Part shown: in pieces, positions 9,650-49,554 of the stretch | How the letters are laid out: the number at the start of each line of letters is the position of its first letter | Numbering within the stretch: position 1 is the first letter of the stretch | NCBI GenBank assembly: GCA_964517415.1 | Contig: CAZFCA010000001.1 | Coordinates: 54,969-118,968 of the forward strand | Length of the DNA stretch: 64,000 nucleotides | Origin: an uncultured Rhodospirillaceae bacterium | Lineage (GTDB): Bacteria; Pseudomonadota; Alphaproteobacteria; UBA9219 | Reading direction: 5' to 3' | Notes under the pieces: generated by a model | Told to the model about the DNA's origin: nothing | Database searches by the model: none | What the model saw: the letters and a program-made list of their open reading frames with translations, nothing else | Program-made: the position numbers and the translations under genes

Positions 9650-10249
9650 CTATTTCACCACCGACATCATGCTTTTGGCGGAGTGCTTGAGGCTAATCGA
9701 GATATCCTCGTCGTCTCGGAAGGTATAGGCGCCGTAGCTGACCTTGATATCAAGCGCGCAATTGCACAGCCGGTTCAGCGATTGTTGAAGCAGAGAAGCC
9801 AGAATTTCCGCTTTTCGCCAAGCGAAGGCGTTGTCGCAGCGCATCAGCAAGACGCCGAATTCGTCGCCCGCAAGGCGACCGACGATATCGGACGTGCGCA
9901 CATTGCCCGTCAAGATCGTGGCGATTTCTTTAAGCGCGTCCGCCGCCGCTTCGTTGCCGAACTGCGCCGCCGTTTCGGCCAGATTTCCGAAATCGAAATA
10001 CAGGATACTGGAAGTGCCGCCGTAACGCTTGTCAAACGCCAGCATGCGCGCGACTTCGCGGTTGAAATCGGGGCGGTTCAAAATGGGCGATTCCTGCGCC
10101 GCCTCAAGGGCATGAACTTTTTCCTGAAGCTCTCTGTTCTGCGACTTTGCCACCGAAAGCTCTTTTTGCAAGCCGCGCAAAATCTCCCGCTGCTGGTCGG
10201 TCAGCGGCGCATCATTAAGCAGATCAAGCGGAGAATTGGGATTTGTCAT
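9650..10249 (-). CDS. Coiled-coil protein with degenerate GGDEF domain (AGDEF in place of GG[DE]EF)
   Basis: YFDFGNLAETAAQFGNEAAADALKEIATIL...RLAGDEFGVLL...IKVSYGAYTF matches the GGDEF fold with a non-canonical active-site motif. Confidence 0.55.
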   Translation of the reverse strand: MTNPNSPLDLLNDAPLTDQQREILRGLQKELSVAKSQNRELQEKVHALEAAQESPILNRPDFNREVARMLAFDKRYGGTSSILYFDFGNLAETAAQFGNEAAADALKEIATILTGNVRTSDIVGRLAGDEFGVLLMRCDNAFAWRKAEILASLLQQSLNRLCNCALDIKVSYGAYTFRDDEDISISLKHSAKSMMSVVK

Positions 10250-11034: not shown

Positions 11035-11796
11035 ATGCGACAAAAAATCCTCGTTCCTGCCCTTGTCCTGTCCCTTGCGGGTTGCGCGCAATTCGACGCG
11101 ATGTTTTCGCAGACGCCGACGCCTTCCGACTTTCCCGATGTCAAGGCCGCGCCGGTGGAGGCCGTGCAATCCGGCGAAAAGGGTTCCCGAGCAGGGGATA
11201 GCCTGCCCAATATCGATATTCCCGCAGCCAATTTGCACGGCGTTCCGGTAACGGCCGCATTGCAAGCCGTTCTTTACGGCACCGACGTTCCCCTTTCGTG
11301 GGACTCCAAGATGATGGCGCCCCACCCAGTCACGCTTATGAACCTGAAAGGCGATCTGCCGACCGTGGTGGATAAAATCTGCACTGCCGCCAACGTTTCA
11401 TGCGCCTATCGCAGCGGCGTTCTGGAAGTTGCCGAAAAGCAGGCTTTTGCCGAACCGCCCGTTTCGGCTCCGCCTCCGGCGCCGATTCTGACGCCTCCGC
11501 CTCCACCGTCACCCCCTCCTGCGCCTCCGCCTCCGCCCGTGATGCCTGAGCCTGTTGCCGAACCGAAGCCCCAGCCGCGGATGGAGGTTCCTATTCTCGC
11601 TCCGCATCCATCCCTTAAACCTATGAGCGACGAATTGCCGCCCCCCATCCTAATCGACAAGGATGGCGCGCGCCCCGTCGCGCCCCAAAGAAAGCCGGAC
11701 CGCGTATCTTCCCTCGACAGAAAAGTTATGAGTTTAGGCACGATTTCCAAGGACGATTTGACGACCGAAGCCTCAGGAAGGGGGGGGCGGCCATGA
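11035..11796 (+). CDS. Lipoprotein with STN/secretin-N-like domain and proline-rich linker (first gene of uncharacterised envelope operon)
   Basis: Lipobox LSLAGC. LHGVPVTAALQAVLYGTDVPLSW...VTLMNLKGDLPTVVDKICTAANVSCAYRSGVLEV resembles an STN domain. PPPAPILTPPPPPSPPPAPPPPP linker. Confidence 0.5.
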   Translation: MRQKILVPALVLSLAGCAQFDAMFSQTPTPSDFPDVKAAPVEAVQSGEKGSRAGDSLPNIDIPAANLHGVPVTAALQAVLYGTDVPLSWDSKMMAPHPVTLMNLKGDLPTVVDKICTAANVSCAYRSGVLEVAEKQAFAEPPVSAPPPAPILTPPPPPSPPPAPPPPPVMPEPVAEPKPQPRMEVPILAPHPSLKPMSDELPPPILIDKDGARPVAPQRKPDRVSSLDRKVMSLGTISKDDLTTEASGRGGRP

Positions 11797-12908
11797 TGCG
11801 CTTTTCAGCCTTTGTCGCTTTTATGGTTTTGGCTTTCCTCGGCGGGGAGGCTTTAGCGCGCGACGCAGCTTTTATGCCGCCCGAAATGCCGTCGGTAAAA
11901 AAAGAGGAGCCGAAGAAAGAGGAACCGAAGAAAGAGGCTATCGCCCAGGCCCTTCCGGCGAAGGAACAGCCCGCCAAAGCGCCGCCGAAGGAAATCAAGC
12001 CCATCAATTTCGGGACTGCCGTTATAGGGGAGAAGGTTATTCGCGCGACGATGCTGGTCAACGACAGCGCGGACCCCATCGCCATCCGCTCGATAGAAAT
12101 GATCTCGCCGGACAACGGCTTGCAGCGTTTAAGCCAAGGGTGCGTTATCGGAAAGCCCATTGCGCAAGGCACTTCATGCCCCGTTATTTTGCAATGGGAG
12201 CCGAAAAAAGCCGGAACGCTTTCCACCGATCTTGTGATTCACCATAGCGGGAAGGTCGGCTTTACCGTTATCGCCGTGCGCGGCGAAGCGAAAGAAAAAG
12301 CGGATCCGCCCGCAGTGGCACCCGCTCCGGCGCAAAAGGAAGCGGTGGTTTCAACGCCCGCTCCTGCGCCTGCGCAGCTTGAGATAACCGCCCCTGCAAC
12401 GCCCCCGACCGTCTCTCCGTCCGAGCCTTTAAAGGAAATCGCGGTTCCTGCGCAGCAGCCTGCCGCGCCAGCCGCTTCTCCTGCCCAACCGGAGGCCAAA
12501 ATTGAAGCCGCGCCCGCGCCTTCGCTGGAAACTAAAAAGGCGGCGGCTGCTCCCGCGCCTGTTTTGCCGCGCAAACTGGAATTTCATAAATTGGAAGAGC
12601 CCAAGGCGAAGAAGATCGTGGCAGCGGCGGGAATCGACGGCGTTCTGTTGATCGGCACTGTCGGCGATAGGGCTATCTTCCAACTGCCTGAAGGCTATAC
12701 GGCCGTCATTCCCGTCGGCGGGACGCTTCAAACGAAAGCGGGCGGGGCGAAGCTGGTCGCCGTTACGCCCTATGCGGCGGAATTCGTCGTCAAGGGGCAG
12801 GAACGAACCGTTCTTTTGAAAGGGGGCGAGGCCACAGCCGATCCAGCCAAGCCCACGAAGCAGAAGAACGCTTCGCGGCATCCTAAAAACAAGAAAAAAG
12901 GGAGATGA
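11793..12908 (+). CDS. Secreted protein: KKEEP repeats, Ig/ASH-like beta-domain, Ala/Pro-rich linker, C-terminal PilP/GspC-HR-like domain
   Basis: Signal peptide. Start overlaps the upstream stop (ATGA). C-terminal IDGVLLIGTVGDRAIFQLPEGYTAVIPVGGTLQTKAGGAKLVAVTPYAAEFVVKGQERTVLLKGG resembles the PilP/GspC HR beta-sandwich. Confidence 0.45.
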   Translation: MMRFSAFVAFMVLAFLGGEALARDAAFMPPEMPSVKKEEPKKEEPKKEAIAQALPAKEQPAKAPPKEIKPINFGTAVIGEKVIRATMLVNDSADPIAIRSIEMISPDNGLQRLSQGCVIGKPIAQGTSCPVILQWEPKKAGTLSTDLVIHHSGKVGFTVIAVRGEAKEKADPPAVAPAPAQKEAVVSTPAPAPAQLEITAPATPPTVSPSEPLKEIAVPAQQPAAPAASPAQPEAKIEAAPAPSLETKKAAAAPAPVLPRKLEFHKLEEPKAKKIVAAAGIDGVLLIGTVGDRAIFQLPEGYTAVIPVGGTLQTKAGGAKLVAVTPYAAEFVVKGQERTVLLKGGEATADPAKPTKQKNASRHPKNKKKGR

Positions 12909-13864
12909 TAAGGGGGGCGATGAAGAAGCTAGCCGAAAAATTACGCGCCTTGACGGGGCCCGTTGACGAGGCAGCGAACATCTATTTCCCGGGCGATCTT
13001 GTGGGCGGATTTTGCGCCCGCACAGAAGGCGACGAACCCCGCCTTGTTTGGAACGCCGCGACCGAAGCCTGCGGCAGCGAGCGCGTGGTGGTCGCGTGGC
13101 GAAGCGTCGGCAACGGCATTTGGTATTTGGCCGCCAAGTCCGAAGATCTGGCATCGCACGTCCATTCCTGGTGCCCTTTGGCGGCGTTGCTGCCCTCGGA
13201 AAAAAATAAGACGATACTGCCCGTTTGTTATACTCACTACGGAACCTATTTCGGCGAGGATATCGCTCTTTTGATGGTCGTGAAGCCGAACGATTTGCGC
13301 ATCTATCGCAGCACGCCCGTCATTATCCGCGCCAAGGCCGAACGTACGGCGCGGGAATTGGGCGAAGGCACGAAGATCATCGATATCGATCTTGCGCGCA
13401 TTGAGCGAATGACTCCGGCGCCCTGGCGCTCAATGTCGCTTTTTGAGGATCGCGCGCGGCGAATTCTCTCGGCGTTTTCGGTTTTCGCGTCTTTGGCAGT
13501 CGCCGGCGCGGCTTTTGCGGTTTGGCTTTATGCGCAAGTCGATATCCTGTCTTCGACGCGCGCCAATGACAGGGCTGAAGCCCGCTCGGCGGGTATCGTG
13601 GCAAGGGCTGAGGATCTGCGCGTAAGTCCTTTGCGGCGCGAACTTAAGAATCTTTTGGACGTGAACGAAGGCGTTTTATCCGTGGACGGCTATTTGTCTG
13701 TTTACGAACTTCAAGAAGGCGCCGTCCGGTGGCGCGCTTCAGCTCCCGCAGGAACGGATGCGGCGCGGCTTGCCGCGTTTAACGCGAAAATTATCGAAGC
13801 GGGCGATGCCGCCCTTTTGATCGGCAACGAGGCCGAGTTTCAAGCCAGCCGGAAGGAACCATGA
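12905..13864 (+). CDS. Bitopic inner-membrane protein: about 190-aa cytoplasmic domain, one TM, about 100-aa periplasmic domain (GspL-like architecture)
   Basis: TM ILSAFSVFASLAVAGAAFAVWLYA. Translationally coupled on both sides. No recognisable motif. Confidence 0.4.
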   Translation: MIRGAMKKLAEKLRALTGPVDEAANIYFPGDLVGGFCARTEGDEPRLVWNAATEACGSERVVVAWRSVGNGIWYLAAKSEDLASHVHSWCPLAALLPSEKNKTILPVCYTHYGTYFGEDIALLMVVKPNDLRIYRSTPVIIRAKAERTARELGEGTKIIDIDLARIERMTPAPWRSMSLFEDRARRILSAFSVFASLAVAGAAFAVWLYAQVDILSSTRANDRAEARSAGIVARAEDLRVSPLRRELKNLLDVNEGVLSVDGYLSVYELQEGAVRWRASAPAGTDAARLAAFNAKIIEAGDAALLIGNEAEFQASRKEP

Positions 13865-14349
13865 ACGCGCTGAAAAACAGCATGGCAGCCAGAGCCTTTT
13901 CGCCGAGCCTTATCGCGCGGGGATTGACCAGCTTTGACAGGGCGACGGGTTTTCTGGTCGCTTTGTGCTGGGTCGCCGCTTTTGCCATGCTGATTATGGC
14001 CGATATCGCCGTTCATCGCGCAGCGTCGCTGTCCAACGCGGGGGCAGGCGGGGTCGAGGTCGTTTCCTCAGCCATGAGCCCTGATGAGATCCAGCCTGTT
14101 TTCGAGCGTTTGAAGCAGCGTTTTCCCGAGCTTAAAGTATCGCTTGACGAGAGCCAAAAACTTCACATCGCAAGCCCCGAAGGCGCAACTTTCCAGCAAT
14201 GGGTGGCCGCTCTTCAGGCGGTGGAGACCATCGCGCCACTATTCTATTGGAGTATAGACGCCCTTTGCGTCGGGCAGTGCGGGGAGCGCGGGTTGATGAG
14301 CGCTGTTATTGCGGGGCAGAAGAAGGAATTTACGGCGCTGAGGGATTAA
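13861..14349 (+). CDS. Small bitopic membrane protein (GspM/PilO-like architecture)
   Basis: Single TM FLVALCWVAAFAMLIMADIAV followed by about 100-aa periplasmic domain. Start overlaps the upstream stop. Confidence 0.4.
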   Translation: MNALKNSMAARAFSPSLIARGLTSFDRATGFLVALCWVAAFAMLIMADIAVHRAASLSNAGAGGVEVVSSAMSPDEIQPVFERLKQRFPELKVSLDESQKLHIASPEGATFQQWVAALQAVETIAPLFYWSIDALCVGQCGERGLMSAVIAGQKKEFTALRD

Positions 14350-14508
14350 AACGCTTATTGTTTGAATGGGTCAGATTTTTTTTGCGAAGGGACGGTTTGG
14401 GTGATTGGGACAAAAAAATTATGTTTACTTGTTTCCTCATCAATCCCGTCCACCCCAACGCCATCAAGGGGGAGGGTTTCGCTCTATGATGTTGAGTGAG
14501 GTGCATAA

Positions 14509-15201
14509 GTGGCTAAGGAACATATAGAAGATCATGCTGATAAGGGAATCGAGAAAACCGCAAAATTAAATGAAAGCAAAAAACGCCATTCCATCGTCGG
14601 TCCAGTTCTTTTTATTATGGCGGTTTTAGCGATTTTGGCGGCTGCCGTTGCGGCGATGACAGGGACTCCCAAGGGTGCGGCGTTTGAAGGTGTAAACCGC
14701 GCGAAGGCGCTCGCCCTGCTCGGCGCGGGAGAGTCTCTTAAATTAGGCATAGATCGCGTGACGCTTGGCAACGGCCTTCGCGCCGCGGATGTCGATCTAA
14801 GCGTCGGGGCGGGGGAAAATCAGCTTTTTTCTCCAGTCGGGGGCGGTATCGCGCCGCCGTCCGTCGGCATGGCGAATAATCCTATGGCTGATAAATGGCT
14901 TTATCCGAAGGGTATCGTCGTTGGGCTTGGGCTGGGAACGAATAGGGCCATGCTTGCCGTTTTGCCTGTGTCGTCGGGCGTGTGCGCAGAGGTGAACGAG
15001 AAAAGTACAGGAACTCCGTTCGTTCCCGAAAAGTCGGATTTAGGGGATTTTGCTGCAGGCGTCGTTTCCGCCGCCTATGGCGCGTGGCCTGCGCCGATTG
15101 CGTCGAGCTTTGCGGGATGCGTGCAAAACGCAAGCGTATCCGTAGGAGAAGAGGGACCTACTTCGGCATACTTTTTTTATCAGGTGCTTGCGGTGCAGTG
15201 A
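14509..15201 (+). CDS. Membrane-anchored periplasmic protein, Gly/Ala-rich; possibly last gene of the same operon
   Basis: N-terminal cytoplasmic tail, TM IVGPVLFIMAVLAILAAAVAAM. 160 bp gap from the previous gene, so its operon membership is uncertain. Confidence 0.35.
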   Translation: MAKEHIEDHADKGIEKTAKLNESKKRHSIVGPVLFIMAVLAILAAAVAAMTGTPKGAAFEGVNRAKALALLGAGESLKLGIDRVTLGNGLRAADVDLSVGAGENQLFSPVGGGIAPPSVGMANNPMADKWLYPKGIVVGLGLGTNRAMLAVLPVSSGVCAEVNEKSTGTPFVPEKSDLGDFAAGVVSAAYGAWPAPIASSFAGCVQNASVSVGEEGPTSAYFFYQVLAVQ

Positions 15202-15379
15202 TGATCTGTGATCAGTGCGCCCTGCGAAATACAGACGGCCACGCTATAAGAAATGTCCGTTAGGATTGTTCCTGCTTCCCCGTCTCTGTTAACACTGATA
15301 ACCGCTTTCTGCTGCCCTTGCCTCCCAGCCTTTTTTCGCGTATTATCGGGCACAATGTTCAATTATTGTGCTTGTCAAC

Positions 15380-17323
15380 ATGGAAAATACAGTATCCAGC
15401 GTAGCCGCGCGCCTCGTTTCTCCCGATGGCGTCAAAGGCTCTACCCAGCGCAGCGTGGATGCCTTGCTGTCCCTCCAAAAGCCGGATGGCCACTGGGTGT
15501 TCGAGCTTGAAGCCGACGCCACGATTCCGGCCGAGTATATTTTGCTCGACCACTTTTTAGGCTCGATCAATCAGCCGTTGCACGAACGCATGGCCGCGTA
15601 TTTGCGCGATATTCAAGAGTCTCATGGCGGCTGGCCATTGTTCCATCGGGGGGATTTGGATGTCAGCGCGAGCGTCAAAGCCTATTTCGCGCTGAAATGC
15701 GTGGGCGACACACTCGATGCGCCGCACATGGTTCGCGCGCGCGAGGCCATTTTAAGCCATGGCGGCGCGGAAAAAACGAACGTCTTTACCCGCATTCAAA
15801 TGGCTTTGTTCGGCGCCGTGCCATGGCGCGCCGTGCCGGAAATGCCGGTCGAGATCATGCTTTTGCCCAAGTGGTTTCCCTTCCACATGAACAAAATCGC
15901 CTATTGGTCGCGCACGGTCATCGCGCCCTTGCTTGTGCTGATGGCCAAAAAGCCGCTGGCAAAAAATCCGCGCCATATCCGCATCGACGAGCTTTTTCTC
16001 ACGCATCCCGAAGCCGTTAAAAAATGGCCCGGGAATGCGCAGCCTTCCATATGGACTTTCGCCTTCGGCGTTATCGATAACATCCTGCGCGCGCTGGAAC
16101 CGCGCATGCCCAAAAAACTTCGCGCCAAAGCCATTGCGCGGGCGGTGGCGTGGGTGACGGAACGGTTAAATGGGGAGGATGGGCTAGGCGCGATTTACCC
16201 GGCCATGGCGAACAGCGTGATGATGTACGATTGCCTCGGCTTTGCGCCGGATCATCCCGATTACGCCATCGCCCGCAAATCGATTGATAAATTGGTTGTG
16301 GATACGCCTCAGCGTTCGTACTGCCAGCCGTGCCTTTCGCCCATTTGGGATACCGCTTTAGCGGCGCATGCGCTGTTGGAGGCGAACGCCCCGCGCGAGC
16401 GCATCGCGGCGGCCTGCGAATGGCTGAAGGCGCGGCAGGTTCTCGATCTGAAAGGCGACTGGGCTTTTTGGCGACCTCATGCCGTTCAGGGCGGCTGGCC
16501 GTTTCAATACAACAACGCGCATTACCCCGATTTGGACGATACGGCGGTCGTCGTTATGGCGTTGGATCGCTTCGACCGAGTGAAATATCGCGAGTCGATT
16601 GAAAGAGCCGTGGAGTGGGTTTTGGGCATGCAGTCGAAAAACGGCGGCTGGGCCGCTTTCGACGCCGATAACGAATATTATTATCTGAACTACATTCCCT
16701 TTGCCGATCACGGCGCGTTGCTCGACCCGCCAAGCGCGGACGTCACGGCGCGGTGCGTCAGCATGCTAAGCCAGCTTGGCTTCCAAAAGGACCATCCTCA
16801 AGTGGCGGAGGCTATCGCCTATCTGCGGCGCGATCAGGAAAAGGAAGGCTGCTGGTTCGGACGGTGGGGAACGAATTATATTTACGGCACTTGGTCTGTT
16901 TTGTGCGCGTTGAACGCCATTGGCATCGGGCCGGAAGACCCCATGGTTCGCCGCGCCGTGGAATGGCTGAAGGCAAAACAAAGGCCGGACGGCGGCTGGG
17001 GCGAAGACGGCGCAAGCTATTGGCGCGATAAGCCCAAAGGCGAATGCGCCGTCAGCACGCCCGCGCAAACGGCATGGGCTTTGATTGCGCTTATGGCGGC
17101 GGGCGAGGTTGACAGCGCGCCTGTCGAGCGCGGCGTCGCGTGGCTTTCGGAAACACAAAAGGCCGACGGCACATGGGACGAAGACTATTACACGGCCGTG
17201 GGCTTTCCGCGCGTGTTCTACCTTCGCTATCATGGATACAAAGCGTTTTTCCCGCAGTGGGCGCTGGCGCGGTACGCTAATTTGAAATTCGGCAATGGCG
17301 CGCCATCGCTTTATGGGATGTAG
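15380..17323 (+). CDS. shc: Squalene-hopene cyclase
   Basis: DxDD motif (DLDDTAVVVMAL), multiple QW repeats, about 650 aa. ORF-track alt start at 15368; first ATG at 15380. Confidence 0.95.
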   Translation: MENTVSSVAARLVSPDGVKGSTQRSVDALLSLQKPDGHWVFELEADATIPAEYILLDHFLGSINQPLHERMAAYLRDIQESHGGWPLFHRGDLDVSASVKAYFALKCVGDTLDAPHMVRAREAILSHGGAEKTNVFTRIQMALFGAVPWRAVPEMPVEIMLLPKWFPFHMNKIAYWSRTVIAPLLVLMAKKPLAKNPRHIRIDELFLTHPEAVKKWPGNAQPSIWTFAFGVIDNILRALEPRMPKKLRAKAIARAVAWVTERLNGEDGLGAIYPAMANSVMMYDCLGFAPDHPDYAIARKSIDKLVVDTPQRSYCQPCLSPIWDTALAAHALLEANAPRERIAAACEWLKARQVLDLKGDWAFWRPHAVQGGWPFQYNNAHYPDLDDTAVVVMALDRFDRVKYRESIERAVEWVLGMQSKNGGWAAFDADNEYYYLNYIPFADHGALLDPPSADVTARCVSMLSQLGFQKDHPQVAEAIAYLRRDQEKEGCWFGRWGTNYIYGTWSVLCALNAIGIGPEDPMVRRAVEWLKAKQRPDGGWGEDGASYWRDKPKGECAVSTPAQTAWALIALMAAGEVDSAPVERGVAWLSETQKADGTWDEDYYTAVGFPRVFYLRYHGYKAFFPQWALARYANLKFGNGAPSLYGM

Positions 17324-17325
17324 AC

Positions 17326-17967
17326 ATGCTAGGAATTCTCTGCGGCCTTGAATCCGAAAGAAAAATCGCCAGGAAAATCGACGGCGCGTTGGTGTCTTGC
17401 GCGGCGGCAAGGCCGCATATGGCGCGTGAATTGGCGCGGGAGCTTGTGGCGCTCGGCGCCACGCGCCTGATGAGCTTTGGCATCGCAGGCTCGCTGGAGC
17501 CTTCCGTGAGGCTGGGCGATGTTTTTATCGGCACGCGGGTTGAGAACGACAAAGGCCGCTGGGAATGCGACGAAGCATGGGGACGCGAGCTTGCGATGAA
17601 AATTCCGCATGCCAAGCGCGGCGGCATTTACGGCTCCGAAGTTTTGGTCGCGACGTGCGAGGCGAAAAGCGCGCTTTTTCGGGGTACGGGATGCGCTATC
17701 GTCGATATGGAAAGCCAATGCGCGGCCGAGGCTGCGGCGCAGGCAAAGCTGCCTTTCACCGTCATTCGCGCGGTGTGCGACGACGCCGGAATGAACGTGC
17801 CGCCCTTCGTCATGGCGGCGATTAATCCCGATGGCAGCACGAACGTCCTTCGCGCGATGGCGCATCTGGCGATGCATCCTTCCCATACGCGGGATCTGTG
17901 GCATGTCATCGGCGGCATGACCCGCGCTTTAAGGGAGCTGAAGGGCATCAGAAATAGTTTAGCATAG
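17326..17967 (+). CDS. hpnG: Hopanoid-associated phosphorylase/nucleosidase HpnG (PNP/UDP family)
   Basis: Immediately follows shc. PNP_UDP_1-like sequence (GIAGSL, VDMESQ). Confidence 0.8.
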   Translation: MLGILCGLESERKIARKIDGALVSCAAARPHMARELARELVALGATRLMSFGIAGSLEPSVRLGDVFIGTRVENDKGRWECDEAWGRELAMKIPHAKRGGIYGSEVLVATCEAKSALFRGTGCAIVDMESQCAAEAAAQAKLPFTVIRAVCDDAGMNVPPFVMAAINPDGSTNVLRAMAHLAMHPSHTRDLWHVIGGMTRALRELKGIRNSLA

Positions 17968-38457: not shown

Positions 38458-39308
38458 GCCCACGCTCTTAGCACACCCGTTACCGTCCCGCAAAGAACGG
38501 ACGCCTTGCCAAGTTTCACATCGTCGCACAAGGGATCGCGTTTTCTCAGCAAGGCCACAAGCCGTTCGGCAAGGACGCAAATGACGGAAACCTCGGCCTT
38601 CAGGCGCAGATCAGGTATCTGCGAAGGAAAACGCCGCGCTTCAGCAAGCAGGGGATCGACCTTGTCCAGCATCGCCTGGAACGTATGGCGCAAGCCTTCC
38701 GGCGCGGCTTCGCGCGCAAGATCCGACGGGCCGGCATGGTTCGCCGCCAGCAAATCCATGGGCAGGTAGACGCGATCAAGTTCGCGATAATCGTTGGCGC
38801 AGTCCTGAATGTGGTTGATGACTTGCAACGCGTTGCATAAAGCGTCGTTGGCTTTCCACACCGCCTCGCCGATGCCGTGCAAGGCCAAAACATGCCTGCC
38901 GACAGGCGCGGCCGAGTAAGTGCAATAATCGATCAGGTCGTCCCAATCGCGATAGCGGAGCTGGGCGGCGTCGCGCTTGAAGGCCTTGAGGAGGTCGAGG
39001 CTATGCTGCGGCGAGACGCCCGTTTCGCGCAGGCTTTCGCGCAAAACAACCGCCGAAGGCACGTCGATGTCGTTTTCGTCCAAAAGGCAGGCGGCGAATT
39101 TGTTCAGGCGAAAAATTTTTTCATCCGGCTCCAAAAGCGGATGGTCGCTGATGTCGTCGGCGTCGCGGGCGAAATTATAAAAAGCGTGTACGTGTGGACG
39201 CAGATCGCGCCGGATCAAAAACGAGCCGACCGGAAAATTCTCGTTATGGCGGTTCTTGCCGCTAGCCTCATCCGGCGGCTCGATCATGCCTGCGCCCGTC
39301 CCTTCCAT
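38454..39308 (-). CDS. hpnC: Squalene synthase HpnC
   Basis: ENFPVGSFLIRRDLRPHVHAFYNFARDADDISD is the HpnC-type signature. Confidence 0.8.
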   Translation of the reverse strand: MEGTGAGMIEPPDEASGKNRHNENFPVGSFLIRRDLRPHVHAFYNFARDADDISDHPLLEPDEKIFRLNKFAACLLDENDIDVPSAVVLRESLRETGVSPQHSLDLLKAFKRDAAQLRYRDWDDLIDYCTYSAAPVGRHVLALHGIGEAVWKANDALCNALQVINHIQDCANDYRELDRVYLPMDLLAANHAGPSDLAREAAPEGLRHTFQAMLDKVDPLLAEARRFPSQIPDLRLKAEVSVICVLAERLVALLRKRDPLCDDVKLGKASVLCGTVTGVLRAWA

Positions 39309-40414
39309 TGGCCGCCCTTTCCCTTATGATAAAGCCGCGCCGAATCCACGGTCGCCGCGACATAAACCAGCGCCGCAGCGGGCAAAGTCAATGCCCACGC
39401 CCACGGCAAATCATAGAACCTGATCGTGGGAAAATATACAAGCGTCATGATTAGATACGCCGCAAAACCGGCAATCAGGCTCCAAAGCGAGGGCGCGTAA
39501 AGGAAAAGCAGGGGCGGCATGAAAAACAAAAGAGTCATGCCTAGAACCGTTCCCGCGAGAAGAAGCGGGGAATAGCCAAGCTGGGTATAGGCAGTGCGGG
39601 CGATCATGCGCCAGACATCATTGATGCGCGAATAAGAGCGAAGGCTGTCGATATCATGCGTCAGGGTAAGCTCGACGTTTCCGGCTTCGCTTTTGATAAA
39701 TTTGGCGAGGCTGCAATCGTCGATCAGGGCGGATTTGATACGCTCTAAACCGCCGATTTTATCCAGCGTCTTCCGGCGCACGAGCATGACGCCCCCGGCC
39801 GCCGCGGCCGTCTGATCGTACATGTTATTCGCTCTGCGGAAAGGATAGATCATCGCAAAAAAGAAAACGAAGGCGGGGATCAGCAGCTTTTCGGCGAAAG
39901 CCGTGCAATTCAACTTCACCATGCGCGAGGCCAGATCGAGCTTCCCTGCCTCCGCCGCCGCCACAAGCTCGCTCAGGCTTTGCGGCCTATGGCGAATGTC
40001 GGCGTCGGTGAAAAGAACCATATTGGCCTTGCTTTGGCCAAGCCCCACGTTCATGGCGGCGACTTTACCTGCCCACCCTGTCGGAAGATCGGGCGCGGAT
40101 ACGACCGTCAGCTTGTCGGCCCTGTCCTGTCTTTCGGCGATTTTGTGCGCGACGGCGGCAGTGCCATCCTTGCTGTGGTCGTCCACCAGAATAACGCGCC
40201 ATTCGCCTTGATAATTTTGTTTCAAAAGCCACGGGAGAGTGAGCGGCAGCATATCGGCCTCGTCCCGCGCTGGAACTATGATATCCACGGACGGCCATGC
40301 GGCAGGCGGTTCGGCCTTGGCGGGCAAAAGGGGAAGCCAAAACTGGCCATGCCAAGCCGCGAGGTATATCCACGCAAGAAGGGCTATAAAACCAAAAAGG
40401 GAAAATAGGAACAT
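39284..40414 (-). CDS. hpnB: Hopanoid-associated GT2 glycosyltransferase HpnB-like
   Basis: VDIIVPARDEA and VDDHSKDGT GT2 motifs with N- and C-terminal TM segments, at the head of the hpnCDE block. Confidence 0.7.
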   Translation of the reverse strand: MFLFSLFGFIALLAWIYLAAWHGQFWLPLLPAKAEPPAAWPSVDIIVPARDEADMLPLTLPWLLKQNYQGEWRVILVDDHSKDGTAAVAHKIAERQDRADKLTVVSAPDLPTGWAGKVAAMNVGLGQSKANMVLFTDADIRHRPQSLSELVAAAEAGKLDLASRMVKLNCTAFAEKLLIPAFVFFFAMIYPFRRANNMYDQTAAAAGGVMLVRRKTLDKIGGLERIKSALIDDCSLAKFIKSEAGNVELTLTHDIDSLRSYSRINDVWRMIARTAYTQLGYSPLLLAGTVLGMTLLFFMPPLLFLYAPSLWSLIAGFAAYLIMTLVYFPTIRFYDLPWAWALTLPAAALVYVAATVDSARLYHKGKGGQWKGRAQA

Positions 40415-40516
40415 CGGGCGAAACCCCTTTAACCTTAGGAGAAGGCGAGAAATAGACGTAAAGAATAAACTACCCCCGCAGTTTCAAAACCTCAACAATT
40501 AACCATAAAGTTCTGT

Positions 40517-41200
40517 TTGAAGAAAGTTCTCCATTTGATAGCCTCCAAAGGCACTATTCATTCAAAGGAGGCAAACGTGCATTTTTGCAGCAAGGACGAT
40601 TTAAGAAAGATCAACTCTCATAACGTGGGCGAAAAGCTTGCGGATTATTTCGACGTTCTCGACAGGACGATGCAGGACAAGCATCATTTCCTTTTTATCG
40701 AAGGCACTGAAGAGGCGAGCGCGTGCACGATCATTTTGCCGCGCCGCGATTCGCCTAGTCTTTTCATGCATGTTTTAAATGGCGTTATTCAACTTGACGG
40801 GCGAAAAACTCTCGTCGCGGCGTTGGAATCAGAGAACACAAAGGAACACATTGTCGTTTCAAATATATGCGGCACTTTCGACTCCGAAATCCGAGCCGCT
40901 TATCTTGCCAATGACAAGAATGTGGTAGGGGACTCTTGCGCCCTAACTTCGCATGGCAAGAATTTGCTCAGAAAATTGGTCGTGAACAAAAAGCTGGTCG
41001 GTCTGTCCCAAATGATGCGCCCGGTCGAGAATCTGCCCGAAGTCATGGATCGTTACTTTGCCGCCGCTTTCGGAAACGAGGCGGTGCCCGAGGTTTCAGT
41101 CGCGCCGCAGCGGCAGGTGATAGCCCCAAAAACGAGCATTCGCCCTGCAGATCGCAGAGAGCCGCCGATGAGGCTTCGGGAAGGATTGCAGTGCGAATAG
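40517..41200 (+). CDS. Hypothetical protein (no recognisable domain)
   Basis: 227 aa, lower GC than its neighbours, divergent from hpnB. Confidence 0.35.
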   Translation: MKKVLHLIASKGTIHSKEANVHFCSKDDLRKINSHNVGEKLADYFDVLDRTMQDKHHFLFIEGTEEASACTIILPRRDSPSLFMHVLNGVIQLDGRKTLVAALESENTKEHIVVSNICGTFDSEIRAAYLANDKNVVGDSCALTSHGKNLLRKLVVNKKLVGLSQMMRPVENLPEVMDRYFAAAFGNEAVPEVSVAPQRQVIAPKTSIRPADRREPPMRLREGLQCE

Positions 41201-41219
41201 AGGGGCTGTACCATTCCCT

Positions 41220-41972
41220 ATGCCTGAAATCCTTTCTGCGCGGAATCTGAAAGAGCTGCCTTTTGTCCGTCACGCCTTTTTCACGCGCGCGTGGGGAGAT
41301 GTGTGCTTTGCGGGAGGCGGCATGCCGCCCCATGCCTTGGAAACCCGCGCGCGCATGGCGGCGCATTTGGATATCGAAGCTCAACATTTTTTGTTCTGCC
41401 GACAAGTCCACTCGCCCGACGTCGTGACGGTCGCAAAGGCTTGGGAGCCGGAAAACGCCCCCATGGCCGACGCGATGGTGACGGATAAGCCCTTTCTCGC
41501 GCTTGGCGTTCTGACGGCGGATTGTGTGCCGGTTTTGCTTTCGGCGCAAGACGGTGCGGTTATCGGCGCAGCGCATGCGGGTTGGCGCGGCGCGCTTTCG
41601 GGCATTTTGGAAAATACGCTTGCGGCGATGGAAAAGCTGGGCGCAAAACGTGGGGATATTCGCGCGGCGCTTGGCCCCAGCATCGCGCAGGAATCTTACG
41701 AAGTCAGGCCCGAATTCCCCGCGCCGTTCATCGCGGAAAACGCGGATAATCAAAAATTTTTTATTCCCGCCAATAGGGCAGGGTATTACCAATTCGATTT
41801 AAAAGGATATGTGGCGGCGAAATTGCGCGGATTGGGCGCAGGCTCAGCAGAAATCATATCCGCCGATACCTGCGCCGATCCGAAACGTTTTTACAGCCAC
41901 CGCCATGCTATCCTTGGCGGCAAAAAGAAAAACGAAGGGAGATTGGTGTCAGCCCTTGCAAAGATCGTGTAA
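41220..41972 (+). CDS. pgeF: Peptidoglycan editing factor PgeF (YfiH / DUF152 laccase-domain protein)
   Basis: QVHSPDVV, ADAMVTDKP, LTADCVPVLL and AHAGWRG conserved motifs. Confidence 0.85.
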   Translation: MPEILSARNLKELPFVRHAFFTRAWGDVCFAGGGMPPHALETRARMAAHLDIEAQHFLFCRQVHSPDVVTVAKAWEPENAPMADAMVTDKPFLALGVLTADCVPVLLSAQDGAVIGAAHAGWRGALSGILENTLAAMEKLGAKRGDIRAALGPSIAQESYEVRPEFPAPFIAENADNQKFFIPANRAGYYQFDLKGYVAAKLRGLGAGSAEIISADTCADPKRFYSHRHAILGGKKKNEGRLVSALAKIV

Positions 41973-42368
41973 AGAACGTGGGTATCCCTTCTTATATAAA
42001 GGATCAAGGGGTCCTCTAAGGGCAGCAGTTGCAGCCAGAGGATCGTATGGAAGTCCATCTTCTTTCCATTCTATACATTTCGTAGCCATATTGGCTTTTT
42101 CCTTCAGGTATTGGTCGTCAAGCACTTCCGCTGTACGCTTAAGAATTTCATATATATGTTCTCCATATGTGGTTTTGGTTGGTAAAAGCGTAACCTGATT
42201 TTGTTTAGGGAAGGAACTGTCTGTATTGGTTTTCGGGTAATCCGTTCTGTGGGCATCGAATTCCAATACCACTAATTCTCTTGCCATTTTGGCAAAGCTA
42301 TTATTTCTATTTACACGATTGCTTTTTATTGTGGCTCTTTTTTCCACATGGTGTAGATTCAGTACCAT
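41949..42368 (-). CDS. Hypothetical protein in AT-rich islet, overlaps pgeF 3' end
   Basis: 139 aa, about 40% GC, no homolog recognised. Confidence 0.3.
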   Translation of the reverse strand: MVLNLHHVEKRATIKSNRVNRNNSFAKMARELVVLEFDAHRTDYPKTNTDSSFPKQNQVTLLPTKTTYGEHIYEILKRTAEVLDDQYLKEKANMATKCIEWKEDGLPYDPLAATAALRGPLDPLYKKGYPRSLHDLCKG

Positions 42369-42628
42369 TTTATTCTCCGTTAGTGTTTTTCTCGAAAAAG
42401 GCTATCTCCCACAGTCATCCGGGCCTTCGCCTACAATGAGGTGAATATTGTTCATCTCACCATGATTTGTCTATAACCGGATGCGCATTAAACAATATTT
42501 TATTGCCGAAAATGCGCCTTTTCAAAAAAAAGCAGTTTTATTTCGGTTAATTCGGGTCAGATTAATACCTTGAATAAAAGAGGCGGGTATGCTCAAAAAC
42601 AGCCCACAAAACGCGCTTTGGACAATCA

Positions 42629-44431
42629 ATGACGGCTCAATCCCATATTCGCAACTTTTCGATCATTGCCCATATCGACCATGGCAAGTCCACGCTCGCG
42701 GATAGGTTGATTCAGACTTGCGGCGCTGTCGAAGCGCGCGAAATGCGCGAGCAAATGCTCGATAACATGGATATCGAGCGCGAGCGCGGCATTACGATCA
42801 AAGCTCAAACTGTGCGCCTGACTTACAAGGCGAAAGACGGGGAAACGTATCAGCTTAATTTGATGGATACGCCCGGGCATGTGGACTTCGCCTACGAAGT
42901 CAGCCGTTCGCTGGCGGCTTGCGAGGGGTCTATTTTGGTGGTGGACGCCTCGCAGGGCGTCGAAGCGCAAACGCTCGCCAATGTTTATCAGGCGCTCGAC
43001 AACAACCACGAAATTATTCCCGTTTTAAACAAAATCGACTTGCCGGCCGCCGAGCCGGAGCGCGTGAAACAGCAGATCGAAGACGTTATTGGCCTCGACG
43101 CTTCGGACGCCATTCCCATTTCCGCAAAGACCGGCCTTGGCGTATCGGACGTTCTGGAAGCCATCGTTACGCGCTTGCCGCCGCCCAAGGGGAATGTTGA
43201 CGCGCCGCTTAAGGCCTTGCTTGTCGATAGCTGGTACGACGCTTATCTGGGCGTCGTGGTTCTTGTGCGCGTTGTGGACGGCGCGATCAGGAAGGGACAA
43301 AAAATCCGCTTCATGGTTACGGGCGCGGTGCGCGATATCGACCGCGTCGGCATTTTTACGCCCAAGAAAATCGAAACCGGCGAATTGAAGGCTGGCGAAA
43401 TCGGCTTTATCACGGCTGGCATCAAGCAAATCAGCGACACGAAAGTAGGCGATACGATCACGGACGATAAAAATCCGGCCGCTTGTCTTTTGCCCGGATT
43501 CAAGCCTTCCGTTCCGGTGGTGTTTTGCGGCCTCTTTCCCGTAGACGCCAACGATTTCGAGCATCTACGCGAATCCTTGGGCAAGCTCGCGCTTAACGAC
43601 GCCAGCTTTATGTTCGAGCCGGAAAGCTCGGTCGCTTTGGGCTTCGGTTTTCGCTGCGGCTTTTTAGGGCTGCTGCATTTGGAGATTATTCAAGAACGGC
43701 TTGAGCGCGAATTTAATCTGAATCTCATCACCACTGCGCCGTCGGTTATCTACAAGGTGCATTTAACCGACCAAACGGTTAAGGAGCTGCACAATCCCGC
43801 CGACATGCCCGACCCCGTGCGCATCGAGCGCATCGAAGAGCCGTGGATCAAGGCCACCATTTTAACGCCGGACGATTATCTGGGCGGCATTTTGGCTTTG
43901 TGCAACGACAGGCGCGGCGAGCAGGTGGAGCTGACTTACGTCGGCGCGCGCGCGATGCTGGTTTATAAACTGCCGTTGAACGAAGTGGTGTTCGATTTCT
44001 ACGACCGATTGAAATCCATCAGCCGCGGGTACGCCAGTTTTGATTACGCGCTGGACGCCTATCGCGAAGGCGATTTGGTGAAAATGTCCATTCTTGTGAA
44101 TGCCGAGCCTGTGGACGCTCTTTCGATTATCGTCCACCGCGCCAACGCCGAAAAGCGCGGGCACATGCTGTGCGAGCGTTTGAAGGATTTGATCCCGAGG
44201 CATTTGTTTAAAATCGCGATTCAAGCGTCGATTGGCAGCCGTGTCATCGCGCGGGAAACCATCTCGGCCATGCGTAAGGACGTGACCGCGAAATGCTATG
44301 GCGGCGATATTTCCCGAAAGCGCAAACTGCTTGAAAAGCAGAAAGAAGGCAAAAAGCGCATGCGCCAGTTCGGGCAGGTCGAAATTCCCCAAACGGCCTT
44401 CATCGCAGCCTTAAAGATGGACGATAAGTAA
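42629..44431 (+). CDS. lepA: Elongation factor 4 (LepA)
   Basis: [21 protein letters not shown], 600 aa, colinear with LepA. Confidence 0.95.
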
Positions 44432-44521
44432 GACAGATGCCAGAAGACAGATGTCAGATAACAAGGCATAGGAAAGCAGTTTTTCAGTATCAAAAAAATC
44501 CTTCTGAAGCGCATCAGCCAT

Positions 44522-44736
44522 TAATACTGGCGTCATCCCCGCGAAAGCGGGGATCCAGGCTGACTTTCCACAAGAACAATCCGTCCAGAATTCATCCCTC
44601 ACTTCCCCCCATCATTCTGGACAATTTGCGCGTCAATACCACAAGAAATGTCAGCGCGGATTATTCGCGTCGTAATTGTTATTCCCGAATTCTATCCGCC
44701 ATTTCTTTTGATAGTCAGCCTGGATTCCCGCTTGCG
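44522..44736. repeat. MITE-like composite: two REP units in inverted orientation (44522-44555 and 44703-44736) flanking about 147 bp that also occurs near 18985
   Basis: CGTCATCCCCGCGAAAGCGGGGATCCAGGCTGAC ... GTCAGCCTGGATTCCCGCTTGCGCGGGAATGACG. Internal AATGTCAGCGCGGATTATTC shared with 18981-19004. Confidence 0.65.
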
Positions 44737-44858
44737 CGGGAATGACGCCGGTTATTATTGCGGCGATAGTTTGCCCGAGGATGATGCCCAATTTATGGCT
44801 GATGCGCTTCAGAAGGATTTGTGTCCCTTATAACTGATCACTGATCACTGATTGCTGC

Positions 44859-47661: not shown

Positions 47662-47697
47662 GAATTCCTTTAGGTTTTCGATCTAGAACAAACGAAT

Positions 47698-47723
47698 GGG
47701 ATGCCCGCTGATCCGGGCATGAC
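47698..47723. repeat. REP variant GGATGCCCGCTGATCCGGGCATGACG
   Basis: Direct read. Overlaps the 5' end of the ORF-track extension of mltB. Confidence 0.5.
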
Positions 47724-47766
47724 GGGGGAAATCGGGATGCCCTTCATTTGGGAAAACAGAAAAACA

Positions 47767-48771: not shown

Positions 48772-48899
48772 AGCGCGGATTCTATCAAATCCAGACTTAT
48801 TACGCTTTTGCTGAGTCTGCCCTAACCCCAGCCCCCAGCCCCTTAATTTTTGTTAATAAATATGGTGTAGCCTGATCGCCCATCATGGAGGCATGAGTA

Positions 48900-49553: not shown

Positions 49554-49554
49554 C

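Follow-up and report, generated by a model that had tools for sequence, protein, structure and literature searches.

A reduced operon related to type IV filament machines in an uncultured alphaproteobacterium and its possible role as a trans-envelope scaffold

[quoted passage not shown] To our knowledge, the alignment subcomplex of known systems never occurs without motor, platform and pore, and no T4F derivative has been described that selection maintains after loss of the core; our literature search, which was not exhaustive, returned none. The chlamydial T2SS without GspL/M has been classed as a "generic" or incomplete T4F (Denise et al., 2019, PMC6668835), and Micavibrio aeruginosavorus has been reported to carry a "type II secretion system lacking GspC/G/H/K" (PMC3189940).

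Here we analyse a five-gene operon within a 64-kb stretch of DNA (hereafter the window) from an uncultured Rhodospirillaceae bacterium. It keeps parts like those of the T2SS and of type IVa pili: an actin-like bitopic protein (g3), a small bitopic protein (g4), an adaptor (g2) and a secretin N-domain (g1). Their topologies are those of GspC-GspL-GspM with the N0 domain of GspD and of PilM-N-O-P with the N0 domain of PilQ, and their connectivity is presumed to be the same.

The operon and its complete relatives

A preliminary description of the window had singled out five same-strand genes at 11035-15201, joined by three ATGA stop/start overlaps and not recognisable by motif, and all of this holds. 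The overlaps can be read from the sequence at 11793-96, 12905-08 and 13861-64 (the g1/g2, g2/g3 and g3/g4 junctions), and none of the five proteins reached a family cut-off in Pfam or NCBIfam, sub-threshold ASH/Ig matches in g2 being the sole signals. The operon is not an assembly artefact, since it is identical in three independent SRA assemblies. Promoter and terminator prediction in the g4-g5 spacer gave nothing above chance; a GAGG Shine-Dalgarno sequence lies 7 nt upstream of the g5 start codon, and complete operons have a gap of ~200-280 nt at the equivalent place, ahead of the first pilin gene (architecture table).

Homologues of g3 are found inside a conserved operon in ~60 other uncultured alphaproteobacterial species, in the order lipoprotein secretin, Ig-domain periplasmic protein (IG), GspE/PilB-type ATPase, GspF-type platform, L, M and one to five pilin-like genes (P); in every complete relative the platform gene separates the ATPase gene from L. 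The products of g1 to g5 match the secretin N-terminus, IG, L, M and P in the same order (E 7e-26 to 4e-88), g3 being the equivalent of L, g4 of M and g5 of the P genes. The neighbourhood survey proposed in the preliminary description thus places all five orthologues in secretin-ATPase-platform operons. It supports and sharpens the suggestion of a "diverged or dispersed" T4F-like platform: the kinship stands, and "dispersed" is too mild a word, as deletions deprived the ancestral operon of its pore, an Ig domain, and the ATPase and platform genes.

In GTDB species representatives, 66 loci share the architecture, only the window and L006 being reduced among them; the host genomes are labelled Rhodospirillaceae, Micavibrio, "Bdellovibrionales" and Rickettsiales. 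No NCBIfam model for T4b, MSHA or T2SS reached its cut-off for this family, and its ATPase scores 202 bits with GspE/EpsE, about 180 with PilB and 89 with BfpD. A Peptidase_A24 gene lies directly 3' of the P genes in L065, L056 and L054. Basal lineages have a short A24 peptidase in the operon; most complete systems encode the peptidase away from the operon. On this sequence evidence, the parent machine is an unclassified, and perhaps undescribed, T4F branch that is widespread in a group of uncultured Alphaproteobacteria. Its prepilin signal, AG/IAIGP without Glu5, is missed entirely by current annotation models, and the family surfaces in poorly known, partly predatory (Micavibrio-like) Alphaproteobacteria.

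Table 1. Features of the operon and prepilin-type genes in the window (slashes mark cleavage sites).
Feature	Position	Strand	Remarks
g1	11035..11796	+	253 aa; predicted outer-membrane lipoprotein, secretin minus pore
g1 lipobox LSLAG/C, through Cys17	11035-11085	+	seen in sequence
g1 conserved secretin N-domain	11203-11448	+	~residues 57-138
g1 Pro-rich spacer	11449-11631	+	~residues 139-199; poly-Pro tract seen in sequence
g1 conserved secretin C-tail LPPPILIDKDGARP...	11632-11793	+	residues 200-253
g2	11793..12908	+	371 aa; secreted periplasmic protein
g2 signal peptide ..EALA/RDAAF		+	residues 1-22; mature N-terminus RDAAF invariant; seen in sequence
g2 KKEEP repeats	~11898-11936	+	seen in sequence
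g2 ASH-type Ig domain (one)	11988-12296	+	residues 66-168; Ala/Pro-rich linker next
g2 C-terminal conserved beta-rich domain LIGTVGDRA...	12627-12827	+	residues 279-345
g3	12905..13864	+	319 aa, or 314 aa from ATG at 12920; BfpC/PilO2/GspL type
g3 cytoplasmic actin-like domain	12977-13438	+	residues ~25-178
g3 TM helix	13463-13540	+	~187-212; coiled stalk next
g3 periplasmic alpha/beta domain	13625-13861	+	241-319
g4	13861..14349	+	162 aa; bitopic; GspM/PilO position, 3' of g3
g4 TM	13948-14016	+	~residues 30-52
g4-g5 spacer	14350..14508		159 nt
g5	14509..15201	+	230 aa, GTG start; type IV pilin-fold
g5 charged leader	14509-14589	+	27 aa
g5 hydrophobic alpha1-N helix SIVGPVLFIMAVLAILAAAVAAM	14590-14658	+	
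g5 globular domain		+	residues 55-230; two conserved Cys
Prepilin-type genes (two)	48900-49553; 49555-50205		N_methyl 22.0, 18.4 bits; cut-off 21.2

The five products

For g1, the lipobox and a tblastn match to the lipoprotein secretin of L004 (591 aa; residues 2-159 aligned, 41.5% identity, E 7e-26) bear out the lipoprotein with a secretin-N-like domain and poly-Pro linker that had first been described; of the STN assignment, homology to the secretin N-domain stands, Pfam STN itself giving a weak, sub-threshold match on the full-length secretin (E 0.039). Aligned with full secretins, g1 keeps both ends, the Pro-rich spacer taking the place of ~350 aa that include the Pfam Secretin domain. The missing pore domain (PF00263), for which Pfam finds no match in g1, is residues 309-480 of the L004 secretin. 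Residues 1-142 gave 56 matches in the representatives, mostly to proteins of 530-700 aa, the short ones alone having been inspected singly. Judged from these alignments, g1 is a truncated secretin with the pore region deleted in frame. Its N-domain (dN/dS 0.09-0.14) and C-tail (0.14-0.18) are more constrained than the spacer (0.33).

The orthologue of g2 is a protein of 415-535 aa encoded between secretin and ATPase, with two Ig domains in complete operons; the first (~100 aa) is absent from g2 of the window, L006, L072 and L077. The KKEEP repeats and Ig/ASH domain noticed earlier were recovered, the former in the sequence and the latter at 46 bits for ASH on the full-length L007 orthologue. 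Both the Ig domain (dN/dS 0.06-0.08) and the C-terminal domain (0.08-0.09) are strongly constrained. The latter, put forward in the preliminary description as a candidate PilP/GspC-HR-like beta-sandwich, has a conserved LIGTVGxRA... motif, no match in Pfam or in a profile search of PDB sequences, and a probability of 0.1% in hhalign against GspC/HofP.

A single TM helix is predicted from sequence in each of g3, g4 and g5. The g3 protein has the GspL/BfpC/PilO2 (R64-type) layout, in which a cytoplasmic actin-like domain is joined through one TM helix to a periplasmic alpha/beta domain, in agreement with the GspL-like order recognised at the outset. Structure comparison, run for g3 and g5, puts PilO2Bp and BfpC as the closest folds to the g3 cytoplasmic domain. 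At the sequence level, g3 matches no Pfam or NCBIfam family, its 57-sequence profile retrieved no PDB sequence at E<=10, and hhalign against E. coli GspL and HofM gave probabilities below 1%. Gene-calling programs place the start of g3 at an internal ATG, 12920 (P0001, 314 aa); we favour the overlapping start because L006 keeps it and has no Met at the position equivalent to 12920. The known role of GspL/BfpC-type cytoplasmic domains is ATPase binding, and since no part of g3 is more constrained than this domain (dN/dS 0.09-0.17), a cytoplasmic partner may still be present.

The topology and gene position of g4 fit the small bitopic GspM/PilO proteins, and its periplasmic domain carries an invariant W..C.G.C motif. 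The L004 orthologue is a 167-aa gene 3' of L (31% identity, E 3e-28), and a gene of this type was found at every locus with enough sequence. The g4 profile matched neither PDB sequences nor E. coli GspM/HofO, and its dN/dS is 0.16-0.17.

Fold comparison matches g5 to type IV pilins, with a long N-terminal alpha-helix packed against an antiparallel beta-sheet. Its initial portrayal as a Gly/Ala-rich anchored protein was right as to the anchor and incomplete as to the fold, and the statement that the operon holds no secretin or pilin was inaccurate on both counts, g1 being a secretin remnant and g5 a pilin-fold protein. The N_methyl motif (G-1, hydrophobic +1, Glu+5) had no match anywhere in the pilins of the family, whose profile naG/IAIGP aligns onto kkG/FTLIE of a solved pilin. 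Conservation of G-1 and I+1 across the family is 90% or higher, but both are replaced in three reduced lineages: the window, L072 and L006 share a change of the near-invariant Gly-Ile at the predicted cleavage site to His-Ser, together with a lengthened leader. The fourth reduced lineage retains the Gly. Loss of G-1 blocks processing and assembly in known type IV pilins; the N-terminus of g5 is non-canonical and probably uncleavable at the predicted site.

Loss of the core, selection and competing explanations

No homologues of T2SSE, T2SSF, the secretin core or A24 were detected within the window. Queries with the family ATPase and E. coli GspE found no GspE/PilB-type ATPase there, as had been said of the operon itself; as a positive control, the GspE query recovers the L004 ATPase at 3e-56. 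Nor did the window yield a credible match to the polytopic platform (GspF/PilC, T2SSF). The "truncated prepilin peptidase" previously placed in the window could not be found: the A24 motif is absent from every frame, tblastn of the window with E. coli GspO and the family A24 peptidase gave no match, and neither did Peptidase_A24 in 18 further window ORFs. The two prepilin-type genes reported elsewhere in the window, at 48.9-50.2 kb, are present, and as canonical prepilin genes they show that another T4F-type system exists. Of the marks of a self-contained T4F machine, the ATPase, the platform and the A24 peptidase are lacking in the 64 kb, and g5 lacks the G-1/I+1 of the family's prepilins. 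This is the part of the genome that was covered, and its other parts could encode an ATPase, platform, secretin and peptidase.

The reduced architecture occurs in four lineages: the window, L006, L072, and L077 with L086. Genes or regions for the secretin core, first Ig domain, ATPase and platform are absent from the window, L006, L072 and L077, and the deletion boundaries are visible in alignments. In a neighbour-joining tree of g3, the window, L072 and L006 form one clade, on a long branch, nested among lineages that bear ATPase and platform. Of the positions near-invariant in complete systems, this clade has altered 11-13 of 67 in L, 4 of 14 in M and 9-10 of 29 in P, against a median of 0-1 deviations in complete-system members.

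We lean towards the view that the operon in the window descends, in reduced form, from a T4F machine and is retained as a trans-envelope "alignment" scaffold that no longer makes a filament of its own. The ancestral operon encoded a lipoprotein secretin, a two-Ig protein, ATPase, platform, L, M and one to five prepilin-like genes. In the window's clade, discrete deletions cut the pore region out of the secretin gene in frame, shortened g2 by the first of its Ig domains and eliminated the genes for ATPase and platform altogether. The window/L072/L006 subclade subsequently lost an N-terminal extension of g3, and the cleavage site and leader of g5 changed there as well. What survives would correspond to the alignment/assembly subcomplex of a T4F machine and would link cytoplasm and outer membrane through a chain made of the g3 cytoplasmic domain, the g3/g4 inner-membrane pair, periplasmic g2 and outer-membrane-anchored g1, with the g2 C-domain docking on the g1 N-domain. 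The g5 protein may be an uncleaved pilin-like subunit, permanently anchored in the membrane. Extrusion of its own filament would be lost because the system has no motor, platform or pore of its own. A static scaffold or tether seems the likeliest outcome, a signalling or localisation platform a possible one.

With more reserve, we suggest that the stripped subcomplex and its probably uncleavable pilin could have been co-opted as a self-standing trans-envelope complex that has a new role other than making filaments, for instance as an envelope tether, polar scaffold or signalling platform. The locus amounts to a natural experiment: the core has gone, and the accessory proteins persist under selection across four lineages, which suggests that the alignment subcomplex can have an independent function. 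It may also be a minimal system for studying how that subcomplex bridges two membranes.

Alternatively, g1-g5 might build a pilus or pseudopilus with ATPase, platform, secretin and peptidase encoded elsewhere, as relocated orthologues or as parts borrowed from the second T4F system with its prepilins at 48.9-50.2 kb. We consider such a dispersed but complete machine rather unlikely, even though the constraint on the g3 cytoplasmic domain, the canonical prepilin genes, the G-1 kept in the fourth lineage and the off-operon peptidase of most complete systems would all suit it. The secretin was not relocated but gutted in frame with its two ends retained, g2 lost an Ig domain, and the pilin cleavage site was abandoned in three lineages; the many deviations in L, M and P and the absence of ATPase and platform from the 64 kb point the same way.

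Far less probable, and largely refuted, is a decaying relic, the non-functional leftovers of a deleted pilus operon heading for loss. Large deletions of essential parts, the long branch and the many changed family-invariant positions could be read as decay, but none of the five ORFs is disrupted, and independent reduced lineages preserve translational coupling at 40-84% amino-acid identity. The dN/dS of g1-g5 (0.11-0.25, approximate for the more distant pairs, where dS is near saturation) equals that of the flanking SDR, GGDEF and purE genes (0.07-0.19) and of complete systems (0.04-0.22 for L, M, P and IG), and folded domains are far more constrained than linkers. Because selection has kept them intact in four related uncultured bacteria, g1-g5 are probably still functional. 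A new envelope complex of unrelated origin, such as a Tol-Pal-like accessory with a coincidental T2SS/T4P-like topology, would fit the want of any Pfam, NCBIfam or PDB-sequence match for g1-g5 and is refuted by direct orthology to genes within secretin-T2SSE-T2SSF operons and by the PilO2/BfpC and pilin folds of g3 and g5.

Comparison with described systems

Unlike their topologies, the sequences of g1-g5 have no detectable similarity to E. coli GspC/L/M, HofM/N/O/P or PDB sequences, and g2 is a soluble secreted protein whereas PilP is a lipoprotein and GspC is TM-anchored. The type IVb pilus machines compared (EPEC Bfp with BfpB/BfpC/BfpD, R64 and the PilO2-type of Burkholderia pseudomallei) are alike in several respects: the secretin of complete relatives is a lipoprotein whose sole PDB sequence match is BfpB, the g3 cytoplasmic domain is structurally closest to PilO2Bp and BfpC, and the best full-length fold alignment of g5 is with the type IVb pilin CofA, TcpA and PilS also matching. 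The family nevertheless differs from them in an ATPase much nearer GspE/EpsE and PilB than BfpD, in gene order, in its ASH-Ig periplasmic protein, and in pilins that carry Pro rather than Glu at +5 and share an invariant N-terminus unique to them; the window version, moreover, has no ATPase, platform or pore.

Like the operon, the chlamydial and Micavibrio T2SS are T4F-superfamily loci outside the named subfamilies from which canonical parts are apparently missing. The Micavibrio "T2SS" may be the same system as the operon family, since the complete form is present in a MAG of Micavibrio sp. (L045). In those T2SS, however, the core is kept and accessory parts are missing, whereas the window operon is the inverse, accessories without the core.

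Organization of the five-gene operon

The preliminary description of five co-oriented genes joined by three ATGA stop/start overlaps was borne out by the ORF coordinates and by direct reading of the junctions. Each overlap is preceded by a purine-rich Shine-Dalgarno sequence, and a 159-nt spacer lies ahead of g5. All products were said to be exported or membrane proteins. In the sequences, g1 carries a lipobox (LSLAG|C), g2 a cleavable signal peptide (EALA|RDAAF) and g3, g4 and g5 one hydrophobic helix apiece. None was said to be recognizable by motif; scans of g1-g5 against Pfam and NCBIfam had no match above cut-off, and the sole matches below it were to ASH/Ig domains in g2. In its AlphaFold2 model (pLDDT 86.4), g3 has an alpha/beta cytoplasmic domain, a long helix that forms the transmembrane segment and stalk, and a small alpha/beta domain in the periplasm, in the order proposed earlier. 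Lower-placed fold matches of g5 were PilA4, EpsG, TcpA, PilS and PulG.

Scanned for promoters and terminators, the operon showed nothing exceeding shuffled expectation. It is flanked by purE upstream and, downstream, by the squalene-hopene cyclase gene shc and a gene of the PNP_UDP_1 family that resembles hpnG in its position. The same locus was assembled independently and identically from three SRA sequencing runs, which rules out an assembly artefact.

Gene callers start g3 at an internal ATG (12920; protein P0001). Of the two possible starts, the ATG at 12905 lies on the g2 stop with GGGAG adjoining, and that at 12920 has GGGGGG 2 nt before it; in databases the protein is present at both lengths, 314 aa and 319 aa (P0001, P0122). 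The overlapping start is probably the real one, because the related locus L006 has Leu at the position of the internal ATG and keeps the overlap. The number of KKEEP repeats in g2 differs among near-identical strains, a 376-aa cluster member (P0120) having one unit more than the 371-aa window protein.

Coordinates of features in the window and in related loci
Feature	Locus	Position	Strand	Remarks
g1	window	11035-11796	same as g2-g5	253-aa ORF
g2	window	11793-12908	same as g1, g3-g5	371-aa ORF
g3	window	12905-13864	same as other four	319-aa ORF
g4	window	13861-14349	same as other four	162-aa ORF
g5	window	14509-15201	same as g1-g4	230-aa ORF, GTG start
ATGA overlaps	window	11793-96, 12905-08, 13861-64
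KKEEP repeats	window	11898-11936		in g2
Possible g3 starts	window	12905-12922
Small GGDEF protein gene	window	9650-10249	minus	upstream of purE
shc, hpnG-like	window	15368-17967		after g5
hpnA/hpnB/SQS_PSY	window	39284-45851
Separate prepilin cluster	window	46873-50205		includes ElyC/DUF218 gene
MltB-type lytic transglycosylase	window	47701-48771
Prepilin-type gene	window	48900-49553		GFTLVE; N_methyl 22 bits
Prepilin-type gene	window	49555-50205		weak GspH and PilS_N similarity
hpnA-like, hpnB-like	L004	1-2711
Split Ig-protein gene	L004	5593-7028		overlapping ORFs, 222 + 258 aa
Pilin genes	L004	11885-14091
Regulator/kinase pair	L004	14118-18074
Regulator/kinase pair	L006	12631-16475
Regulator/kinase pair	L086	1908-3650
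Pilin-like genes	L065	11636-15524		minor-pilin-like paralogues among them
Remote version	L070	3051-6974
Remote version	L071	4183-7032		Azospirillum oryzae A2P

Complete operons in relatives and their neighbourhood

Relatives of g3 are rare (57 at 90% clustering among 5.8 billion proteins), and all are unnamed proteins from uncultured Alphaproteobacteria. In L004, the contig of a distant homologue, the g3 homologue sits inside a complete operon, which precomputed Pfam calls resolve as Secretin, two unannotated ORFs, T2SSE, T2SSF, the g3 homologue, a 167-aa gene and three paralogues of about 210 aa. In tblastn searches, g1 matched residues 2-159 of the 591-aa L004 lipoprotein secretin (41.5% identity, E 7e-26), g2 the two ORFs after it, g3 its homologue (42%, E 4e-88), g4 the 167-aa protein (31%, E 3e-28) and g5 the three paralogues (38-41%). 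The Ig-domain protein (IG) matching g2 is encoded by a single gene of 415-535 aa in other loci; the L004 split probably reflects a frameshift or an error of assembly. The L004 ATPase (E) and platform (F) had no tblastn match anywhere in the 64-kb window, in line with the earlier statement that the operon has no ATPase.

A profile scan of GTDB species representatives recovered 66 loci, all from alphaproteobacterial MAGs, with labels including Rhodospirillaceae, Micavibrio sp., 'Bdellovibrionales' and Rickettsiales. The order secretin, IG, E, F, L, M and one to five P genes (L, M and P corresponding to g3, g4 and g5) is common to all loci with enough flank, the window and L006 being the only exceptions to completeness among these representatives. 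Gene-neighbourhood conservation, proposed as a check, is seen in orthologues of g1-g5 that recur in the same order in secretin-ATPase-platform operons. Remote versions, with L just 26-27% identical, occur in L070 and L071, where very long upstream-extended ORFs (949-1307 aa as read) hold the secretin position. Azospirillum oryzae, a cultured species carrying one of them, could give experimental entry to the wider family.

Judged from its sequences, the parent system is an unclassified branch of the type IV filament (T4F) superfamily that misses the curated cut-offs of all named subfamilies. The best NCBIfam match of the secretin is MshL (103 bits, cut-off 250), and BfpB is its only match among PDB sequences (E 6.5e-6). 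The ATPase is closest to GspE (262 bits, cut-off 630) and, among PDB sequences, to EpsE (202 bits), PilB (about 180) and BfpD (89), in that order; the platform scores 51 bits with ComGB (cut-off 240) and 47 bits with GspF (cut-off 424). P proteins have a leader of about 16 residues and then a nearly invariant N-terminus, AG|IAIGPILFIIAILAILAAAIAAGSGSF, which is class-III-like but non-canonical, with Pro rather than Glu at +5 and no N_methyl/TIGR02532 match. The minor-pilin-like paralogues of L065 carry it too. Their identification as prepilins is supported by a 157-aa Peptidase_A24 gene (28.5 bits, cut-off 26.5) directly 3' of the P genes in the basal loci L065, L056 and L054, and by the P family profile, which places 'naG|IAIGP' on 'kkG|FTLIE' of a solved pilin, a weak alignment (E 1.1). 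This Geopilin N-terminus was the only match of the P profile among PDB sequences, where the L, M and IG profiles had none. In hhalign comparisons of the four family alignments with single E. coli GspL/M/C/G/H and HofM/N/O/P sequences all probabilities were at most 2%, which is uninformative rather than negative. From topology, position and analogy, g4 is putatively GspM/PilO-like and the C-terminal domain of g2 putatively PilP/GspC-HR-like.

By gene neighbourhood, the operon is linked to hopanoid biosynthesis genes, a link that may be functional or a matter of synteny alone. At least 24 loci have genes resembling hpnA and hpnB (GT2) immediately upstream of the secretin gene, accompanied by a squalene synthase-like (SQS_PSY) gene where the contig is long enough, as in L004. 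In the window, shc and the hpnG-like gene follow g5, and hpnA/hpnB/SQS_PSY lie 25-30 kb away. Immediately 3' of the pilin genes, an EAL-domain response regulator and a 7TMR-DISM histidine kinase are found in 16 distinct loci, reduced L006 included (17 regulator matches counting L005, a duplicate of the L004 contig), and again in L086, from a second reduced lineage; the 64 kb of the window lack the pair. In reduced lineages, a gene for a small GGDEF protein is conserved upstream of purE. The EAL and GGDEF neighbours hint at a link to c-di-GMP signalling.

Derivation of the reduced form

The lost parts are the motor, the platform and the pore. Aligned with full secretins, g1 keeps the lipobox, the conserved N-domain (roughly residues 57-138) and, at its C-terminus, the tail LPxxxxIDKDG.... 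A Pro-rich spacer of 60-90 residues stands in place of some 350 middle residues, among them the Pfam Secretin domain (309-480 in the numbering of the L004 protein); this is an in-frame internal deletion. All complete systems have two Ig (ASH/HYDIN-type) domains in the IG protein; g2 has lost the first and retains the second, together with the linker, the C-terminal domain, which is conserved, and the mature N-terminus RDAAF, which is invariant. E and F are absent, g2 overlaps g3, and one P gene is left. The survivors are a secretin N-domain anchored to the outer membrane by lipid, a periplasmic adaptor, the inner-membrane pair L/M, which has an actin-like domain in the cytoplasm, and a protein of pilin fold.

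Besides the window, the reduced form occurs in three other lineages. The g3 proteins of L072 and L006 are 84% and 70% identical to that of the window, and a more divergent fourth lineage was found by searching with the g1 N-domain alone, the poly-Pro tract left out. Short N-domain matches other than P0128 were, by eye, contig-end fragments of full-length secretins or ORFs continuing into sequence that is out of frame, and were not counted among the reduced forms. In L077, a 256-aa truncated secretin with the same terminal remnants is followed by a single-Ig g2 homologue and directly by L; L086, from the same two samples, holds the C-terminal part of L, then M, P, the EAL response regulator and the kinase, and we infer that the two represent one genome. 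A JGI metagenome scan with the reduced-g1 alignment returned complete systems only.

A neighbour-joining tree of L proteins (purely distance-based, with no support values; outgroups L070 and L071) joins the window, L072 and L006 in a single clade that lies within the E/F-bearing lineages. This nesting marks the reduction as derived and, with the ATPase and platform present in both outgroups, rules out the reduced form as the ancestral state. The clade has changed at many of the positions that complete systems conserve to 90% or more: L at 11-13 of 67, M at 4 of 14 and P at 9-10 of 29, against a median of 0-1 in complete-system members. In P these changes are concentrated in the N-terminal motif: H-S replaces G-1/I+1 to yield 'RHS(I/L)(V/I)GP', 'AAGSGSF' turns into 'AAMTGTP', and the leader lengthens to 27-43 residues. 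In the L077/L086 lineage, AG|VAIGP and the long N-terminal extension of L both persist, so the core deletions preceded the loss of the cleavage site.

Pseudogenization is ruled out by dN/dS (Nei-Gojobori, with dS near saturation for more distant pairs). Within the reduced clade, values were 0.16-0.22 for g1, 0.14-0.20 for g2, 0.11-0.25 for g3, 0.16-0.17 for g4 and 0.22 for g5. Controls gave 0.07-0.19 for the flanking SDR, GGDEF and purE genes and, in complete systems, 0.04-0.21 for L, 0.06-0.22 for M, 0.07-0.20 for P and 0.14-0.19 for IG. The constraint is located in the folded domains of g1-g3, namely the g1 N-domain (0.09-0.14; 0.33 in the Pro-rich spacer), the Ig domain (0.06-0.08) and C-domain (0.08-0.09) of g2 and the cytoplasmic domain of g3 (0.09-0.17).

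Possible roles and comparison with known systems

In the T2SS, the GspC HR domain contacts GspD N0, and GspL contacts both GspM and GspE; in T4aP, alignment involves PilP with PilQ N0 and PilM/N/O. By analogy with both, the survivors would be the counterpart of the alignment/assembly subcomplex and might still connect the cytoplasm to the outer membrane as a chain. A non-Gly residue at -1 stops cleavage and assembly of known type IV pilins, and by the same reasoning window g5 is most likely a permanent bitopic membrane protein. We lean towards the view that the operon encodes a static trans-envelope scaffold and no longer makes a filament of its own.

The main alternative, though unlikely, is that g1-g5 act with a motor, a platform and a pore whose genes lie at other sites in the genome; the absence of these parts refers to 64 kb of it. 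The cytoplasmic domain of g3 is under tight constraint and the fourth reduced lineage has kept G-1, both of which are compatible with this, as are the two canonical prepilin-type genes that the preliminary description had placed elsewhere in the window and that we located in a separate cluster with ElyC/DUF218 and MltB-type genes. No ATPase, platform, secretin or peptidase gene adjoins them, and the truncated prepilin peptidase of the preliminary description was not found in the window by motif regex, tblastn (GspO, family A24) or Pfam on 18 extra ORFs. Neutral decay and an unrelated complex are both effectively refuted.

The literature searched held no account of this operon family, nor of motor-less T4F remnants. 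T4F systems without accessory parts have been described, such as the chlamydial T2SS without GspL/M, and the inverse case of accessory parts only is not described in the same study (Denise et al., 2019; PMC6668835), whose scheme would class such loci as 'generic' T4F. In the genome of Micavibrio aeruginosavorus, a 'type II secretion system' without GspC/G/H/K has been reported (PMC3189940), which may be the same system, since a Micavibrio sp. MAG (L045) carries the complete family. The pilin signal of the family is non-canonical. Type IVb pili are the closest known systems, with a lipoprotein secretin, a BfpC/PilO2-like L and a CofA-like pilin fold in common, and g1-g5 have the same topology as the alignment subcomplexes of T2SS and T4aP. 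The novelty lies in a T4F-derived, accessory-only derivative maintained by selection.
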